From: a virus
Lineage: Duplodnaviria > Heunggongvirae > Uroviricota > Caudoviricetes
IMG/VR virus record: IMGVR_UViG_2740892115_000003
DNA length: 27,180 nt
Direction: 5' to 3' (one strand)
Below the pieces are notes generated by a model. The model was not told where the DNA came from. It saw only the letters and a program-made list of their open reading frames with translations, and searched no databases. Shown in pieces: positions 1,102 through 11,431 of the stretch (the stretch's first letter is position 1; each line of letters begins with the position of its first letter). The position numbers and the translations under genes are program-made.

Positions 1102-1440
1102 TTAGCGGGGTGATTTTTGGTTTGTTTCGGTTGAAACCTGATCGCCCTCCGAATCGAAGAAGCCATCAAGAGAGAGAGGCGGAGCAATCTGCCCCGTCGC
1201 AGCATTAGTTTGATTAAACATCACCCAATCCGAATACTTCCGAAAACGAGGATGATTCAAAATCAGGAGTAACGTTTCTCCAGGTATCATTCTTCCCAAT
1301 ATTTCATAATTTTTGAGATTGTATTGAGATACCCCTGTCACCTCCTCCATCTCTCTACGTGACAATCCCTCTGCCTCTCGAATCAGGCGAAGTTTTTCTC
1401 CAAGGCTTGATTTATGGATCATATGTGATCTAAACTCCAT
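1102..1440 (-). CDS. C: Immunity repressor, P2 C-like (HTH)
   Basis: Small minus-strand ORF divergent from cox; HTH segment LSRREMEEVTGVSQYNLKNYE and C-terminal FNQTNAATGQIAPPL resemble P2 C (FMTNQIAPESGQIAPAL). In-frame ATGs at 1440 and 1422; true start ambiguous. Confidence 0.8.
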   Translation of the reverse strand: MEFRSHMIHKSSLGEKLRLIREAEGLSRREMEEVTGVSQYNLKNYEILGRMIPGETLLLILNHPRFRKYSDWVMFNQTNAATGQIAPPLSLDGFFDSEGDQVSTETNQKSPR

Positions 1441-4453: not shown

Positions 4454-5005
4454 ATGAAACTCAAACCAATGGGTACACCTGGTGTGGCTCCGGCACATGT
4501 AAAACCATGGACACAGCAGGAGGATGAACTTTTAGCCACGTTATACCACTCCCACACAGCGCCGGAGCTGACAAAACACCTTCAGAGAACCGAGTCAGCA
4601 ATACGAAGTCGCATCCGTCTTTTGCTCTCTCAGGGGGTTATTCACGCCAAACGCCCCCACCTGAGCACAAAAGAACTCAGCATGCTCATCAGGAATCGCC
4701 ACACAAAAACTATCCGGGAACTCGCGAATGAGCTGGGGCGCTCGCCATCCACGGTGGAACTGAACCTGAGAAAAAGAGGGTATCGGTTCAGGAAATACGG
4801 GGAACTCCACCACAGAACCAGATACAGCGATCACCTGGTGGAGTTGGTAACTGAACTGCGTGATGAGAAGGGGATGACATTCAGCGAAATCAGGAAGCAC
4901 ATCCGGGACACAGCCGGGATATCCCTTAAAAGATGGGTTCCCGCCCGGCTTTACGCACGATATACCGCCGCTGACACCGTGCTTTGCGAACTGCTACCGG
5001 ACTGA
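4454..5005 (+). CDS. Putative DNA-binding protein with Myb/SANT-like and HTH-like segments
   Basis: 183 aa; AGGGAG RBS; PWTQQEDELLATLY...RTESAIRSRIRLL fits a Myb/SANT-like pattern, followed by IRELANELGRSPSTVELNLRKRG. Confidence 0.55.
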   Translation: MKLKPMGTPGVAPAHVKPWTQQEDELLATLYHSHTAPELTKHLQRTESAIRSRIRLLLSQGVIHAKRPHLSTKELSMLIRNRHTKTIRELANELGRSPSTVELNLRKRGYRFRKYGELHHRTRYSDHLVELVTELRDEKGMTFSEIRKHIRDTAGISLKRWVPARLYARYTAADTVLCELLPD

Positions 5006-5125
5006 GTAACCACTATGCACACACAAAAAAACCGCTTGCCATGCCGCAATCAGTCAGGTTACATTTTCGCTGCACCTCATAAAACGGGTGCCGGGTTTCG
5101 CAGCCTGCTGACAACCAAAGCGCAC

Positions 5126-5147
5126 AACCGCGCCAGCGGTTTTTTTG
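5126..5147 (+). terminator. Rho-independent terminator-like hairpin after the 4454-5005 gene
   Basis: Stem AACCGC (5126-5131), loop GCCA, stem GCGGTT (5136-5141), then a run of seven T (5140-5146). Confidence 0.5.
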
Positions 5148-5158
5148 TGCGTACTGTA

Positions 5159-5187
5159 TTGCCACGTTTTTTTCGCACACGAATTAT
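5159..5187 (+). promoter_or_regulatory. Candidate sigma70-type promoter immediately upstream of the structured element
   Basis: TTGCCA (5159-5164), 17-nt spacer, AATTAT (5182-5187); moderate match only. Confidence 0.3.
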
Positions 5188-5263
5188 GGCGGGGCGTACG
5201 GGGCCGACTTCGGTCGGGCCGGGTTCTTTGGTTGCCGGTACTGCGAACCCCGTACGTCTCGCC
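5188..5263 (+). ncRNA. Candidate structured RNA element (small RNA or structured 5' leader), strand-specific fold
   Basis: 16-bp closing helix 5188-5203 with 5248-5263 including two G-U pairs (only possible on the + strand RNA); inner hairpin CCGAC-TTCG-GTCGG (5204-5217); second inner stem GCCGG (5218-5222) with CCGGT (5235-5239). Confidence 0.3.
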
Positions 5264-5325
5264 ACCCACAGTTTCGCAGCTCTGGATGGTGAGTTTTCAA
5301 AACTTACAACCAAAGAGGCCACACC

Positions 5326-5556
5326 ATGGCAAACCGCAAACAGCACCGCGCTATCGCGGAGCGTCGTCACATCCAGACTGAAATCGATCGCAGACTCACC
5401 CGCGCCGCACACATCGCCTTTATCATGCAATCCAACACATTGCACAGACTCAACAGCACTATTTCAGCCGACTACTGCGCCGCTGTATTCAGCTATCTGG
5501 CGGAAGACCTCCTGTCTCTTCAGGATCTCATCCAGCAGCAAAACAAACTCCATTAA
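5326..5556 (+). CDS. Small protein, unknown function (76 aa)
   Basis: ATG at 5326 with AAAGAGG 8 nt upstream; balanced composition; overlapped by a longer + ORF (5015-5632) judged spurious. Confidence 0.4.
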   Translation: MANRKQHRAIAERRHIQTEIDRRLTRAAHIAFIMQSNTLHRLNSTISADYCAAVFSYLAEDLLSLQDLIQQQNKLH

Positions 5557-5628
5557 TTCCTGTTCCGGGCCTTTCTTGCACCTTGCGGCGGGAGGCCTTC
5601 GCACATCTGTAACCAGAGGATTGCCGCA

Positions 5629-5994
5629 ATGATTCTCGCCAACGACTTTCTTGAATACCTGCTCAACACAGAGCGTGATCTTGCCGTTCGCGTGCGTGAC
5701 CGTTATGACATGTACCTGAAATCCCTGCCTGTACCGCAGCTCGCTGACGGAAAGATTGTTATTGATGGCCGCTACATGATTGACAGCCACGAGGGAAATT
5801 ACAGGCTTTACCGCATTGAAGGTGGCACCCCGTCCGTTATTGGCATTTACCAGCGCCCATCCTCTGCAATCGTCGATGTGATTGCCGACAGCATCCGCAT
5901 CACACATCGCCATGCCGACACAGAAGACACCGTGCTGGAAATTCAGCGGCTGGCTGCCGTCTGCCGCGACACCCTGAATGGCATGACGAAGTAA
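5629..5994 (+). CDS. Protein of unknown function immediately upstream of replication gene A
   Basis: 121 aa; ATG at 5629 with AGAGGA upstream; ends 6 nt before the A start. Confidence 0.6.
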   Translation: MILANDFLEYLLNTERDLAVRVRDRYDMYLKSLPVPQLADGKIVIDGRYMIDSHEGNYRLYRIEGGTPSVIGIYQRPSSAIVDVIADSIRITHRHADTEDTVLEIQRLAAVCRDTLNGMTK

Positions 5995-6000
5995 ATCACT

Positions 6001-8802
6001 ATGACGGCAGAGTACATCAGGGACTGGCAACAACCGCGCCACGCGGTGGGGCGTGAAGGAACGGGGATCCCCGCTCCTGAATCCGCGCTTTCCTCCTGGC
6101 TGGGCGCCTACCGGGTAGAGAACGAGCGCCGCCAGGAAATGGCTGATGCGGCGTTCTCCGCCACGCCGCTGGGCAACCTGATTAATAAAAGCTTGGACGC
6201 ACAGGAAAAACAGGACAAAACCATCACACTGGCAGGAGACGCCAGAAAACAGGCACGCGGCGCGGTGGATGAAGCCATGGCCTCGCTGCGCCTGCTGCCG
6301 TCCTATCTGCGCGATCCGCTTATTCGCCACCTCTCCTTCCTGCGCAAAAAACAGGAAGCCGATCGCCGGAAAGGCAAAAAGAGCTGGCAGGCGGAACGCT
6401 ATGCACGCGGAACCCTGCGCAAAATATTCGAACGTCTGGACCGCACCGATCACCGCTGGCTGACACCGGGTTATCGCTCCCTTGCTGGACGCGAACGCCT
6501 GGACGATTTGCTTTACCTGCCGCAGCTCAACAAACACCAGATACAGACGCTGGCCACCATGACGGCGGCGATGTTCAGCAGCACCTTCGAAAAACTCTGC
6601 GATGGCTTTGGCGCGACTGATGGCGAACTGACCATGGATGTAACGCTGAAGGCGTATCAGATGCTGGCCCGCATGGCGTTACACCTGCACGCCATGCCTC
6701 CACATTATGACTCACTGACAACAGACAAAGACCGGAGGAACGAACCGGACACAGAGCTGCTGCCGGGCGCAATCCTTCGCCTGACCTGTGCGGAATGGTG
6801 GAAACGCAAACTATGGCTGTTACGTTGCGAGTGGAGAGAAGAACAACTCCGCGCCGCCTGTCTGGTTTCCAGAAAAACATCGCCCTATCTGAGCCAGGAC
6901 GCGTTAAGCGAGTTTCGCGCACAGCGCGAGAAAACACGCGATTTCCTGAAAAGTTTCATGCTGGAAAACGAAGACGGGTTCACGATTGATCTCGAGACAG
7001 TGTATTACGCGGGAGTAAGTAACCCGGTTCACCGTAAGGCAGAAATGATGGCCACCATGAAGGGACTGGAACTTCTGGCCGAAGCCCGTGGCGACAGAGC
7101 GGTGTTTCTGACTGTCACCTGCCCGTCAAAATACCACGCAACAACGGAGAACGGTCATCCGAACCCCAAATGGAACGGGGCCACCATGCGCGACTCCAGC
7201 GATTACCTGGTTAACACGTTTTTTGCGGCGGTCCGCAAAAAACTGAACCGCGACGGCCTGCGCTGGTATGGCATCCGCACGGTGGAGCCTCACCATGACG
7301 GCACCGTGCACTGGCATATGATGGTCTTTGCTCATCCGGAAGAAATCGACAGCATCGTGGCCATCACCCGCGATATTGCCATTCAGGAAGACCGCCACGA
7401 GCTGGGCAATGATATTACTCCGCGCTTTAAAGTGGAGTATGTCGACGGCTCAAAAGGCACACCAACCAGCTATATCGCGACCTACATCGGGAAAAACCTG
7501 GACAGCCGCGCCGTGGATGGCATCGACCCGAAAACGGGCAAACCACGCGTTGACCACGAAACCGGAAAATCAATGGCCGAGAGCGTGGAGCGCGCCATCG
7601 GTTGGGCACGCCTTCACCGGGTCCGCCAGTTCCAGTTCTTTGGCATCCCCTCCCGTCAGGTGTGGCGTGAACTCCGCCGCCTTGCCAGCCAGATGGCACG
7701 CAACCCGGAAGGCCCGCAACGGCTGAAGGATGACGCAATGGATGCGGTACTCGCTGCCGCTGATGCCGGATGTTTTGCCACCTACATAGAGAAACAGGGC
7801 GGCGTACTTGTTCCACGCAAAGACTACCTGATTCGCACCGCCTACGACCTCGCCGATGAGCTGAACGATTACGGCGAACAGAGTGTACAGATTTACGGGA
7901 TCTGGTCACCACTCATCGGGGAATCCTCCCGTGTGTGCACGCACCCGGATAACTGGAAGCTGGTAAGACGTAAACCGGAACAGGAAGGCAGCGCCCACGA
8001 AAATGGTTTTGACCTTCAGGGCGGCCCTGCCGCCCCTTGGACTCGTGGCAATAACTGTCCCCGTGTACAGGAAACGGACAACAACGGGACAGAACAGCCG
8101 GAAGAACGGCCAGCACCGTGGCCGCAGCTTCCTGACGGCGTTGACGTGAACGAATGGATGCGCTCACTGAAACGGCACGAACGCCGGGCGCTGATGCATT
8201 CGCTGCGTGACAAACAGGCAAAAAACAGCAGTGATGAAATGCAGAGCTGGACACAGAGCCGCAAACAGCAGCGGCCTTTGCCTGATAACCACGAATTACT
8301 CGCTAAAGAATGGCGGGAGTCTGCCGAATCTCTCGGCCTGCATATCGGTGAACAGCAGATGCAGCACCTGTTACGGGGCGGCAGTCTGTACGTTGACGGC
8401 AGCATCATTGCACCGCAGGGATTTGAAATTGTACGCAAACCGGATACCCGACCGGACAGCCGGATCACGCAGCTCTGGCAGCGCCTGAGCCGTAACCACG
8501 GCGTAAGCAGTACGGAGATCCGCCATAACCCGGTCGCCAGCTATCTGGAACAGCTGAGGGCATCAGACCCCGAAGCCGCCGCACGCCTGGCATCCACACT
8601 TCAGCAAGACCAGAACACCATGAAAACACCCGTTACCGTGCTTTCTGACATGCTGCGCGCCATCCGCGACGCAGAGCACGCACAGAGAATCAGTGAAACC
8701 ACTGAACGCGCCCGCCGCAAAGCAGACCTGCTGCGGGGTGGCCTGACCAGTGGAAACAAAAAACAGACAGAAACGGGATTTCAGAATCCCGTAAACGATT
8801 AA
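6001..8802 (+). CDS. A: Replication initiation endonuclease, P2 A-like (rolling-circle initiator)
   Basis: 933-aa ORF; central region carries the HUH-type metal motif VEPHHDGTVHWHMMVF and the catalytic tyrosine motif YIATYIGKN, as in the P2/186 A family. Confidence 0.9.
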   Translation: MTAEYIRDWQQPRHAVGREGTGIPAPESALSSWLGAYRVENERRQEMADAAFSATPLGNLINKSLDAQEKQDKTITLAGDARKQARGAVDEAMASLRLLPSYLRDPLIRHLSFLRKKQEADRRKGKKSWQAERYARGTLRKIFERLDRTDHRWLTPGYRSLAGRERLDDLLYLPQLNKHQIQTLATMTAAMFSSTFEKLCDGFGATDGELTMDVTLKAYQMLARMALHLHAMPPHYDSLTTDKDRRNEPDTELLPGAILRLTCAEWWKRKLWLLRCEWREEQLRAACLVSRKTSPYLSQDALSEFRAQREKTRDFLKSFMLENEDGFTIDLETVYYAGVSNPVHRKAEMMATMKGLELLAEARGDRAVFLTVTCPSKYHATTENGHPNPKWNGATMRDSSDYLVNTFFAAVRKKLNRDGLRWYGIRTVEPHHDGTVHWHMMVFAHPEEIDSIVAITRDIAIQEDRHELGNDITPRFKVEYVDGSKGTPTSYIATYIGKNLDSRAVDGIDPKTGKPRVDHETGKSMAESVERAIGWARLHRVRQFQFFGIPSRQVWRELRRLASQMARNPEGPQRLKDDAMDAVLAAADAGCFATYIEKQGGVLVPRKDYLIRTAYDLADELNDYGEQSVQIYGIWSPLIGESSRVCTHPDNWKLVRRKPEQEGSAHENGFDLQGGPAAPWTRGNNCPRVQETDNNGTEQPEERPAPWPQLPDGVDVNEWMRSLKRHERRALMHSLRDKQAKNSSDEMQSWTQSRKQQRPLPDNHELLAKEWRESAESLGLHIGEQQMQHLLRGGSLYVDGSIIAPQGFEIVRKPDTRPDSRITQLWQRLSRNHGVSSTEIRHNPVASYLEQLRASDPEAAARLASTLQQDQNTMKTPVTVLSDMLRAIRDAEHAQRISETTERARRKADLLRGGLTSGNKKQTETGFQNPVND

Positions 8803-8826: not shown

Positions 8827-9786
8827 ATGAAAATTTGTATCGATGACGGCTCCACCAACATCAAGCTGGCATGGACTGAGAACGGCGAACGCCGCAACGC
8901 CATCAGCCCGAACAGCTTCAAGTCGGAATGGTCTGCGCCGTTCGGTGGCACGCAGCCCGCGAACTACATGCTTGATGGCGTGCGCTATGGTTTTGATCCG
9001 GTCAGCGATCGCTTTGTCCAGACGACTGACACGCAATACCAGTACAGCGATGTGAATGTCATTGCCATTCATCACGCGTTGGTCAAATCAGGCATCACGC
9101 CACAGGAGGTGGATGTGGTTGTCACCCTGCCACTGAGCGAGTATTTCGACACAAACGCACAGCCGGACATAGCCAACATCAACCGCAAAAAAGCGAACGT
9201 TATGCGCCCGGTGGAGTACCAGAACGGCGAAGCATTCACTATCCGTAACGTACGGGTTATGCCTGAATCCATTCCGGCTGGCTTTAAGGCACTGGCTGAC
9301 ATGAGTCCGTTTGAATCCCTGCTGATTGTGGATTTAGGCGGAACCACGCTGGATGTGGCAAAGGTTCAGGGACAACTGGCAGGTATCAGCCAGGTGTTTT
9401 GCGATCCACACGTAGGCGTTTCCCTGATGGCCGATGCCGTACTGTCGGTGATGGCCACTAACGGTATGCGTACCAGTCACCACATCGCCAATACCATTAT
9501 CGAACATCGCCATGATGAAGCCTGGCTGCGCCAGCACATCCACAATGACGCGCATTACGCCAGCCTGATGGCGGTTATTCGTGAAAAGGAAGAAACACTG
9601 AAACAACGCGTGATCCGCGCGCTGGCGGGTTTTTCGGGTTACGGGCGGGTGATGGTTGTCGGTGGAGGGGCGGAGATTGTGGCACCCGCTATCCGCGAAG
9701 CCTGCGGAGTTAATGCGACTTTCATCGCGGACGGGGTGCCACAGTTTGCTCTGGTTAATGGGCTGTACGCAATGGACAAGGAGTAA
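8827..9786 (+). CDS. parM: Actin-like segregation ATPase, ParM/StbA family
   Basis: 319 aa; N-terminal MKICIDDGSTNIKL and LIVDLGGTTLDV phosphate-binding motifs, ESIPAG, MVVGGGAE, and C-terminal LVNGLYA follow plasmid R1 ParM along the whole length (from memory); AAGGAAAAG RBS. Confidence 0.85.
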   Translation: MKICIDDGSTNIKLAWTENGERRNAISPNSFKSEWSAPFGGTQPANYMLDGVRYGFDPVSDRFVQTTDTQYQYSDVNVIAIHHALVKSGITPQEVDVVVTLPLSEYFDTNAQPDIANINRKKANVMRPVEYQNGEAFTIRNVRVMPESIPAGFKALADMSPFESLLIVDLGGTTLDVAKVQGQLAGISQVFCDPHVGVSLMADAVLSVMATNGMRTSHHIANTIIEHRHDEAWLRQHIHNDAHYASLMAVIREKEETLKQRVIRALAGFSGYGRVMVVGGGAEIVAPAIREACGVNATFIADGVPQFALVNGLYAMDKE

Positions 9787-9790
9787 ACCA

Positions 9791-10102
9791 ATGACGACAC
9801 CAACCAGACGGATAAGTTTCTATCTGAAGCCTGCGGCCGTCAAGAACGAAAGCGAAGCATGCGCCTGGCTGGACAGCCTTACACCAGAAGCCCGCAAAAG
9901 CGGCCAACGCGTGGCTTTTCTGGCCGGGCTGGCACTACTGAAAATGAATCCGGCAGAGGCTTACCGACTGGCTGCATGGGCTGATGATGAGGCATTATCA
10001 GTGACACAAACCAGGACAGAACGCCCCGCGTCACAGCCAGTATCAGCCGCACAGATAACCAGTCAGATGGCCGGAAATATCCGGGCGTTATTTCCCGAAT
10101 AA
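9791..10102 (+). CDS. parR: ParR-like DNA-binding adaptor (ribbon-helix-helix N-terminus)
   Basis: ATG at 9791 with AAGGAG SD, 4 nt after the parM stop; N-terminal RRISFYLKPA...LDSLTPEARKSGQRVAFLAGLALL parallels R1 ParR. The ORF-track start at 9656 lies inside parM and is rejected. Confidence 0.65.
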   Translation: MTTPTRRISFYLKPAAVKNESEACAWLDSLTPEARKSGQRVAFLAGLALLKMNPAEAYRLAAWADDEALSVTQTRTERPASQPVSAAQITSQMAGNIRALFPE

Positions 10103-10667: not shown

Positions 10668-11075
10668 TTAAATATAATCTTCTTCGTAGTCGCTGATTAA
10701 TTCATTGCCATAATCAGACAGCAATTTCAAAGCAAAGGTAACTTCCTCAAGGGTAGCTATCCCCATTGCTGAAAACACCGTTAATTTAACCAGCAGCAGG
10801 GAGTTTGAAAGTTCGGAAGAGTTCATCATTAAAAATATTGATGCAGCCTGAAAAGCTGTGCGTTTATTCCCATCATGAAAGGCATGAGCCTTGGCTATAC
10901 CAATCAAATACATAGCAGCCAGAGCATGAATATCATCAACCCCTTCATAGTAGTGTAGTGTCCTGACGCGATTTAAAGCACCTTCAAGTAGCCCGTCATT
11001 GGCATTTCCGCTCTGGGGTAAAGTTTCAGCATGGATACGTTCTACTTGTTCTTTTGACAAAAACACTATGTCCAT
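10668..11075 (-). CDS. doc: Doc-family toxin (Fic fold)
   Basis: 135 aa; motif HAFHDGNKRTA fits the Fic/Doc signature Hx(F)x(D/N)(G/A)NKR; start ATG overlaps the upstream antitoxin stop (ATGA). Confidence 0.85.
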   Translation of the reverse strand: MDIVFLSKEQVERIHAETLPQSGNANDGLLEGALNRVRTLHYYEGVDDIHALAAMYLIGIAKAHAFHDGNKRTAFQAASIFLMMNSSELSNSLLLVKLTVFSAMGIATLEEVTFALKLLSDYGNELISDYEEDYI

Positions 11076-11431
11076 CAGTTATCCTCAAGCTTTTTAATGA
11101 TATCCGCATGTTTTTCTCTTGTACGCTTCATTGCATCTTCAAAAGACAATCCTTTTTTTCTCTGTGCGACAAGAGCTGGATGACGTTTTTCCAGATCTCT
11201 CACTGCATTTATTAAGAGTGGTTGCTTCATTTTGTTTATTTGATCCCGCAGTTTTTTGGTTTTGCCAAGGACAGCCCGTATTTCAGGACTAAGATCAGAA
11301 CCAGCAAGAACAACATCCTTCCCTCCCTGCGCAGTGATAACGACACTGCCACCGGAAGAAAGGTAATCCAGAATTTCACTCAGGTTCTCACGAAATTCAT
11401 CATCAGTTACAGTTTTCATATTCATTTCCAT
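11075..11431 (-). CDS. phd: Phd/YefM-type antitoxin
   Basis: Directly upstream of and overlapping doc; N-terminal KTVTDDEFRENLSEILDYLSSGGSVVIT is Phd/YefM-like. Three in-frame ATGs (11431, 11425, 11419); exact start uncertain. Confidence 0.7.
   Translation of the reverse strand: MEMNMKTVTDDEFRENLSEILDYLSSGGSVVITAQGGKDVVLAGSDLSPEIRAVLGKTKKLRDQINKMKQPLLINAVRDLEKRHPALVAQRKKGLSFEDAMKRTREKHADIIKKLEDN

Follow-up and report, generated by a model that had tools for sequence, protein, structure and literature searches.

A probable IsrK-C4 type RNA immunity module ahead of replication gene A in a P88-like prophage of Escherichia coli

The region 5' of replication gene A in a 27,180-nucleotide (nt) stretch of viral DNA (IMG/VR virus record IMGVR_UViG_2740892115_000003, Caudoviricetes; the whole stretch is referred to as the window) was analyzed by RNA family scans, folding and comparison with related loci. 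We consider it quite probable that an IsrK-C4 RNA immunity module of the P1 immI / P4 cI type is present here, one which, as we infer, acts by repression. The host of the module is a P88-like (Xuanwuvirus, Peduoviridae, P2-like) prophage of E. coli. By analogy with P1 and P4, a C4-type antisense RNA most likely keeps an anti-repressor-like gene off, and replication gene A, located behind this epsilon-like gene, is probably kept off as well. The IsrK-C4 class of modules is itself already known: Rfam has a curated family for it, P1 and P4 have been studied genetically for decades, and mechanisms of this class were known from 1990 on for P1 and from 1992-95 on for P4. The features of the region are listed in Table 1.

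The C4-type and IsrK-like RNAs

When the whole window was scanned with Rfam, the C4 antisense RNA family (RF01695) matched positions 5182-5269 of the plus strand with 87.1 bits (E = 3.5e-16), above the curated gathering cut-off of 45 bits. The match was full length (model positions 1-87 of 87), and the two positive controls, the experimentally defined P4 CI RNA and P1 C4, scored 74.9 and 68.8 bits on the same model, respectively.

The fold consists of a long closing helix around two hairpins. The closing helix (5188-5203 with 5248-5263) has 16 bp, or 17 bp when U5187-A5264 is counted, and includes two G-U pairs (G5192-U5259 and G5194-U5257). Inside it are hairpin 1 (5204-5217), which carries a UUCG loop, and hairpin 2 (5218-5239), which carries a 12-nt loop (GUUCUUUGGUUG). 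The plus strand RNA folded with -49.8 kcal/mol (z = -4.05), a value equalled by one of 200 shuffles, and the minus strand RNA with -37.8 kcal/mol (z = -1.9). The strand asymmetry is therefore real. An earlier description of the region, made from the letters alone (the sequence-only reading), had placed the 16-bp helix with its two G-U pairs at the right coordinates as a plus strand structure and had recognized both the UUCG-closed inner hairpin and the second inner stem.

Covariation was analyzed in an alignment of 22 distinct C4 sequences, including those of P1 and P4. RNAalifold recovered the same three helices, and compensatory double changes were found in 14 of 27 pairs. None of 500 shuffles matched the observed covariation on any of five measures. 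In the named structure 95.9 % of the cells were paired, compared with 32-49 % when the partners were slid. However, this percentage is inflated and the invariance of hairpin 2 is biased because the pattern and filter used for retrieval were derived from the element: the pattern left no freedom in the hairpin-2 stem and the UUCG loop, and to pass the filter a locus needed at least 13 of the 17 closing-helix pairs. The compensatory changes, as well as the loop-target co-variation described below, were outside the selection criteria. Of the checks proposed with the sequence-only reading, the Rfam scan and the covariation analysis are decisive and place the element well beyond chance.

No tRNA or tmRNA was called in the window scan, and the element is tRNA-like solely in its acceptor-type helix and ACC tail. 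The junction AAUUAU^GG and the ...GCCACC tail are common to the window and the annotated P1 C4 RNA. RNase P substrates of the hairpin type, as described in the literature, include C4 (P1/P7) and CI (P4) (PMC5499578). In this family a stable RNA of about 77 nt is released from a longer transcript, and the features seen here are consistent with an analogous release of a C4-type RNA by RNase P.

As the second of two matches above the curated cut-offs, the same Rfam scan found a full-length match of the isrK Hfq-binding RNA (RF01394) with 65.9 bits (cut-off 50), located 5' of the C4-type RNA. This IsrK-like RNA consists of hairpin 1, hairpin 2 and an intrinsic, Rho-independent terminator (5126-5146) whose stem (5126-5141, AACCGC/GCCA/GCGGTT) is followed by a T-run up to 5146. 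The terminator hairpin with its T-run had been noticed before and is genuine; it belongs to the IsrK-like RNA. On the isrK model the seqA region of P4 scored 60.8 bits. Hfq binding and partial read-through of the terminator are known only for the IsrK of Gifsy-1 (PMC4825925).

The IsrK-like RNA also has a predicted sigma-70 promoter of its own (5036-5065), the -10 element of which ends 7 nt 5' of the start of the IsrK model (5072). The positions of its -35 and -10 elements are kept across divergent C4 loci, and the Rfam model of the P1-type upstream element (c4-a1b1, RF03163) aligns the window TACAT with the annotated -10 element of P1 P51b, TATAGT. It corresponds to P1 P51b (P1c4), P4 PLE and Gifsy-1 PisrK.

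Table 1 Features of the IsrK-C4 region and downstream genes in the window
Feature	Position	Strand	Description
Predicted sigma-70 promoter of the module	5036-5065	+	TTGCCA (5036-5041), 18 nt, TACATT (5060-5065)
IsrK-like small RNA (a1/b1 leader; seqA in P4 terms)	5072-5146	+	RF01394
a1 (TTCGCAG)	5097-5103	+	IsrK hairpin-2 loop; exact 7-nt complement of a'
b1 (CAACCAAAG)	5112-5120	+	Single-stranded IsrK linker; exact 9-nt complement of b'
Promoter-like match of the sequence-only reading	5159-5187	+	TTGCCA (5159-5164), 17 nt, AATTAT (5182-5187), 9/12
C4/CI-type antisense RNA	~5188-5266, ~79 nt	+	Mature ends placed by homology to the annotated P1 C4
b' (UCUUUGGUUG)	5225-5234	+	Within the 12-nt loop of C4 hairpin 2
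a' (CUGCGAA)	5241-5247	+	Unpaired linker from hairpin 2 to the closing helix
a2 (TTCGCAG)	5273-5279	+	Downstream mRNA leader, 9 nt past the C4 helix; 7-nt complement of a'
b2 (CAACCAAAGA)	5307-5316	+	10-nt complement of b'; overlaps the Shine-Dalgarno AAGAGG
Epsilon-like gene, putative first regulated gene	5326-5556	+	76 aa, homologue of P4 epsilon (helper derepression protein)
ORF121	5629-5994	+	121 aa, phrog_3237
Replication gene A	6001-8802	+	Pfam Phage_GPA, E = 1.7e-130

Antisense segments and their targets

Two segments of the C4-type RNA, the linker segment a' and the loop segment b' of hairpin 2, are unpaired and exactly complementary to a2 and b2, respectively, in the downstream leader, where b2 lies at the ribosome-binding site (Shine-Dalgarno AAGAGG at 5313-5318, serving ATG 5326). 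A second copy of the targets, a1 and b1, is located upstream on the same transcript, within the IsrK-like RNA. The calculated duplex energies were -14.2 kcal/mol for b':b2, -11.4 kcal/mol for b':b1 and -10.0 kcal/mol for both a':a1 and a':a2, compared with 0 to -4.6 kcal/mol for the crossed combinations. The site names follow the P1 nomenclature; order and spacing match those of a1, b1, C4, a2, b2 and icd as annotated in the P1 record. These relationships had been missed by the sequence-only reading, which contained neither the IsrK-like RNA with its putative decoy sites nor the complementarity of C4 to the ribosome-binding region of the gene at 5326-5556.

Related loci were retrieved by scanning IMG/VR with a pattern for the hairpin-1/hairpin-2 junction. 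As about two thirds of the 120 pattern matches were chance matches in GC-rich DNA, a structural filter that checked explicitly for both hairpin 2 and the closing helix was applied. A total of 35 distinct C4-like loci, including the window, were kept; they represent 22 loop/linker combinations (specificity classes) with 19 loop-2 types and 16 linker types.

In the 22 classes, cognate and non-cognate pairs were scored for complementarity over 7 nt or more, and the segments were found to co-vary with their targets. Loop 2 matched the upstream flank in 64 % of cognate and 2.9 % of non-cognate pairs, and the downstream flank in 86 % and 4.8 %, respectively. In the case of the linker, the values were 91 % (cognate) and 1.1 % (non-cognate) for either flank. 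The target offsets are fixed, at about +9 and +43 on the 3' side of the helix and at -66 to -120 on its 5' side.

The variation is concentrated in the pairing segments. Among 10 P88-like loci (the window and L002, L022, L030, L037, L054, L060, L067, L069 and L112), the six interacting segments showed 0.28-0.32 differences per site (b' 0.28; a' 0.31), compared with 0.01-0.12 in the scaffold. The window has the loop found in L060/L112 together with the linker found in L054/L067/L069, and in P88 itself both a' and b' (GUUCUGUAGUUG / UUGUGGAAA) differ from those of the window. The a and b determinants were seen to reassort independently, giving nine loop/linker combinations in the 10 near-identical loci.

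Such hypervariable, reassorting determinants suggest diversifying selection or recombination for immunity type. From the sequences compared, segment variation together with reassortment is the signature that would be expected of an antisense specificity determinant, of which the heteroimmunity of P1 and P7 is an example. Specificity-dependent immunity would accordingly be set by the loop and the linker.

Two further elements were observed in the leader. A conserved GGUGGUGAG-like motif (5286-5294) is the complement of the 3' strand of the C4 closing helix (5258-5266), and a covarying hairpin (5289-5307) is located between a2 and b2. Both suggest that the transcript can pair in alternative ways before it is processed.

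Proposed mechanism and alternative explanations

The following course of events would account for these features. As in P1, P4 and Gifsy-1, part of the transcripts would read through the IsrK terminator. RNase P would then cut after AAUUAU and give a stable RNA of about 79 nt ending in ...GCCACC. The released C4 RNA would pair in trans with a2 and b2 and block translation of the epsilon-like open reading frame (ORF), and the untranslated, C-rich ORF would become subject to Rho-dependent termination, so that ORF121 and gene A would stay unexpressed from these transcripts. The a1/b1 sites of IsrK may serve as a competing or decoy site, which would either autoregulate read-through or titrate C4 and turn the operon on. 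The loop and linker sequences would confer immunity specificity.

Rho-dependent polarity is known in both P1 and P4, and by analogy ORF121 and gene A (5629-8802) are probably subject to polarity. The ORF at 5326-5556 is C-rich and G-poor (C/G 1.88), and sub-windows of 78 nt within 5360-5497 reach C/G values of 2.1-2.5, above the 99th percentile of the window. This bias would fit a rut-like region that becomes exposed upon a translation block.

Several published results on homologous systems are in line with this scheme. Full repression of ant in P1 needs C4 (PMC8198154). CI has been named as the homologue of C4 and seqA as that of IsrK, and the term 'IsrK-C4 immunity system' has been used for this arrangement, which is present in P1, P7, N15, P4 and some lambdoid prophages (PMC3632133). 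In Gifsy-1 lysogens, IsrK and the C4-like STnc1160 are highly expressed (PMC7067206), and both c4 and c4-a1b1 have been listed as motifs of Proteobacteria and phages (PMC2864571).

The product of the ORF at 5326-5556 shares 29 % identity with P4 epsilon over 66 aa (BLASTP, E = 2e-8), and the two proteins give reciprocal PHROG cross-matches (7.6e-9 for the match of P4 epsilon to phrog_3688). The start codon of the first ORF is found 54-65 nt past the C4 helix in 26 of the 27 distinct loci compared (+41 in L087). At other loci this first ORF encodes a Rha-type anti-repressor, a 64-aa P4-like product or a DUF3077/DUF6124 protein.

Some observations, in addition to the selection bias mentioned above, weigh against a repressing module. 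Each functional step in this prophage is carried over by homology. The upstream element reached 19.6 bits on RF03163 (5059-5111, permissive scan), under the cut-off of 46.7; the P1 a1/b1 region scored 51.0 bits on c4-a1b1 and 35.1 bits on isrK, and as the isrK model covers the same stretch of the window, we regard the two as models of one homologous element. On Pfam PF25738 (Derepression) the ORF at 5326-5556 scored 22.1 bits, under the cut-off of 27; it is an epsilon homologue outside the curated family threshold, and its anti-repressor-like role is putative. Experiments with Gifsy-1, the one lambdoid homologue that has been studied closely, favoured activation by IsrK via a structural switch, and constitutive STnc1160 left the toxicity of IsrK unrelieved (PMC4825925). 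The simple picture in which C4 represses may therefore be incomplete. The predicted minimum free energy (MFE) structure of the 274-nt read-through RNA pairs a1/b1 with a'/b' in cis, which opens the C4 closing helix. Finally, unlike in P1 and P4, the module is part of the Pe-driven early operon, and lytic transcripts would therefore carry it too; gene A would then have to escape repression by some route during lytic growth.

The most serious alternative is that a switch of the Gifsy-1 type dominates, a reading that we hold to be possible and clearly less likely than repression by C4. In Gifsy-1 the read-through RNA is silent owing to cis pairing of IsrK with the C4-like sequence, and short IsrK activates it in trans (PMC4825925). 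Here, likewise, the C4-like sequence would be present mainly in cis in a silent read-through mRNA with a1/b1 paired to a'/b', and C4 would not be a trans-acting repressor; the two explanations overlap in part and their modes are not exclusive. The switch was demonstrated at the homologous isrK-orf45-anrP locus (PMC4825925), and the predicted MFE structure of 5072-5345 (-109.8 kcal/mol) contains a long-range IsrK:C4 helix and also pairs the GGUGGUGAG-like motif at 5286-5294 with the 3' strand of the C4 helix. The IsrK:C4 duplex is likewise larger than the C4:leader duplex (duplexfold, -57.1 vs -40.0 kcal/mol). However, co-variation with C4 is as tight for a2 and b2 as it is for a1 and b1, and a purely IsrK-centred model needs no such co-variation of a2 and b2. 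An ATG at 5186, conserved in 24 of the 27 loci, agrees with a switch; yet in the window it opens a frame of 148 codons that is out of frame, unlike the short coupled ORF of Gifsy-1. Moreover, genetics has defined the processed RNA as the immunity factor that acts in trans in P1 and P4 (PMC8198154, PMC3632133).

In the sequence-only reading, a sigma70-like promoter at 5159-5187 would drive a separate small RNA or leader from a start near 5190-5196. We regard this as very unlikely. The 9/12 match with 17-nt spacing is there, and its -35 element (TTGCCA, TCGCCA or TTGCTA) is found in 10 of 10 P88-like loci. However, the region contained two promoter-like matches, compared with 1.5 +/- 1.4 in shuffles, and the match alone is not above chance because shuffles give such matches as frequently. 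Its AATTAT is the conserved 5' leader of C4, which directly precedes the annotated mature 5' end of C4 in P1 as well, and both P1 c4 promoters are located upstream of a1/b1. The distance from the IsrK terminator to C4 ranges from about 25 to 90 nt among C4 groups; outside the P88-like group the -35 element and the spacer are absent, the terminator-to-C4 distance being about 25 nt there. In addition, the start would fall inside the closing helix: initiation at 5192-5196 would remove 5-9 nt from the 5' strand of this conserved and covarying 16-bp helix. We concluded that the promoter at 5159-5187 is probably not functional. What stands of that proposal, by homology, is a strand-specific small RNA or processed leader for the downstream ORFs; a promoter of its own finds no support.

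It is hardly credible that the region instead encodes an 'ash family protein' (ORF 5015-5632 or the RefSeq pseudogene) with an incidental RNA structure. Pfam PF10554 (Phage_ASH) does match aa 16-107 of the ORF with 30.8 bits (cut-off 26), and the Prokaryotic Genome Annotation Pipeline (PGAP) annotates an 'ash family protein' pseudogene at the locus. However, with 59.7 bits the same family matches the obsolete 'cI gene product' coding sequence (CDS) of P4, which covers the CI RNA (L123 8168-8584, minus strand). ORF 5015-5632 also spans the promoter and the intrinsic terminator, and it overlaps the epsilon-like gene in a different reading frame. Between groups, the spacer shows large indels of variable length, and the variation in the region tracks base-pairing and target complementarity. 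PF10554 and the name 'ash family protein' seem to represent a conceptual translation of the IsrK and C4/CI region (window ~5060-5335). NCBIfam gave no match for ORFs 5015-5632, 5326-5556 and 5629-5994, and no Pfam match was found for the reverse-strand ORFs 5054-5269 and 5077-5445. In RefSeq and public records the locus is entered as the pseudogene or as a hypothetical CDS of the opposite strand, and the two RNA genes are missing.

Prophage context and known systems

When the window was compared with other genomes, it was 100 % identical to a prophage adjoining pdxB in an E. coli chromosome; identity was 96 % with Citrobacter phage Shae_phiSM and 87-89 % with P88 and its relatives. Within the rightward early operon, the module is placed 3' of the integrase, C repressor (1102-1422, minus strand) and cox and upstream of gene A. 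It is followed by ORF 5326-5556, ORF 5629-5994, gene A (6001-8802) and parM. DNA at least 80 % identical to the module was found in 1399 of 5426 complete E. coli genomes, at 1566 places in all. Some E. coli genomes carry related modules in two to four copies (maximum four places per genome).

The gene just 5' of the module (4454-5005) encodes a protein of 183 aa with helix-turn-helix domains (phrog_323, 'transcriptional regulator, D5-like'), and P88 has another gene (lipoprotein/serine protease) in this place. Homology to P88 relatives starts only at about 5015-5022, so that the module has a mosaic junction as its left edge. Gene A is followed by a ParM/partition pair (8827-10102) and a Doc/Phd toxin-antitoxin pair (~10668-11419), which are plasmid-maintenance-type functions inside an integrated P2-like prophage.

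C4 has the conserved ATG (5186-5188) at its 5' edge. This edge ATG is in frame with the downstream ORF in the lambdoid and P4-like groups, and no stop codon lies between them. The frame opened in the window runs out of frame across the epsilon-like gene. Judging from mutant numbering, orf45 of Gifsy-1 appears to start at the equivalent ATG (PMC4825925).

A limited literature search found no report of an IsrK-C4 module in Peduoviridae (P2-like/P88-like), which is absence of evidence only. Current knowledge is not overturned by the module. For P2-like phages it predicts a second, RNA-based layer of immunity beside the C repressor, one that would control an epsilon-like (anti-repressor-type) protein and perhaps also gene A. 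In terms of evolution, it would link the P4 immunity/epsilon cassette to helper-type phages: a full phage of the P2 family, a type that P4-like satellites use as helper, would bear a satellite-type cassette before its own replication gene. The module variants also represent a natural collection of orthogonal antisense/target pairs. A bolder proposal, which we put forward as speculation and consider improbable, is that the 22 reassorting RNA specificities define networks of cross-immunity and cross-derepression among co-resident P2-like prophages and P4-like satellites. If this were true, the C4 of a helper might silence a matching satellite, or the reverse, and there would be an RNA-coded layer of helper-satellite conflict beyond self-immunity.

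Among the known systems, the module is similar to immI of P1/P7, found at 48.1-49.7 kb of the P1 record in the order P51a, P51b, a1 (in a hairpin loop), b1, a terminator-like hairpin, C4, a2, and b2 over the Shine-Dalgarno of icd. The pairing partner of the P1 a-sites is the linker (CUGUCAA), and that of the P1 b-sites is loop 2 (CACUAAC). Both C4 RNAs belong to the same Rfam family and share the three helices, a' in the linker, b' in the hairpin-2 loop, the AAUUAU leader and the ...GCCACC 3' end. In both, a1 is in an upstream hairpin loop with b1 just 3' of it before the terminator, a2 is a few nt past C4, b2 overlaps the Shine-Dalgarno of the first ORF, and the predicted promoter of the window aligns with P51b. 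However, the first gene in the window is epsilon-like and gene A lies downstream, whereas P1 has icd/ant (ant1/2). The window module is part of a P2-type early operon, while that of P1 forms a separate operon under a C1 operator. In addition, the upstream element scores as isrK and not as c4-a1b1, and the a/b sequences differ, which would give a different specificity.

In the case of P4 (PLE, seqA, CI RNA = seqB, seqC, epsilon, orf151, orf106 and alpha), CI matches the C4 family and seqA the isrK family, an epsilon homologue is found downstream, and a replication gene ends the same transcription unit. Thus the order of IsrK, C4, epsilon-like gene, small ORF and replication gene parallels that of the P4 alpha operon, and the same 'Ash' mis-translation is seen in both. 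The differences are that the host of the window module is a complete P2-like phage while P4 is a satellite, that the replication gene encodes a P2 gpA-type endonuclease instead of the alpha primase, and that the epsilon-like ORF starts 62 nt past C4, compared with about 245 nt past CI for P4 epsilon. ORF121 is also not similar to orf151 (E = 0.17).

Gifsy-1 of Salmonella (isrK, orf45/STnc1160 and anrP) shares with the window an IsrK RNA, a terminator that is read through (presumed in the window), a C4-like RNA and an anti-repressor-type gene, and the cis IsrK:C4 pairing predicted here resembles its 'structure A' (PMC4825925). Unlike the window prophage, Gifsy-1 is lambdoid and has a Rha/AnrP-type anti-repressor, and its short translated orf45 is coupled to anrP, whereas the corresponding frame in the window is 148 codons long and out of frame.

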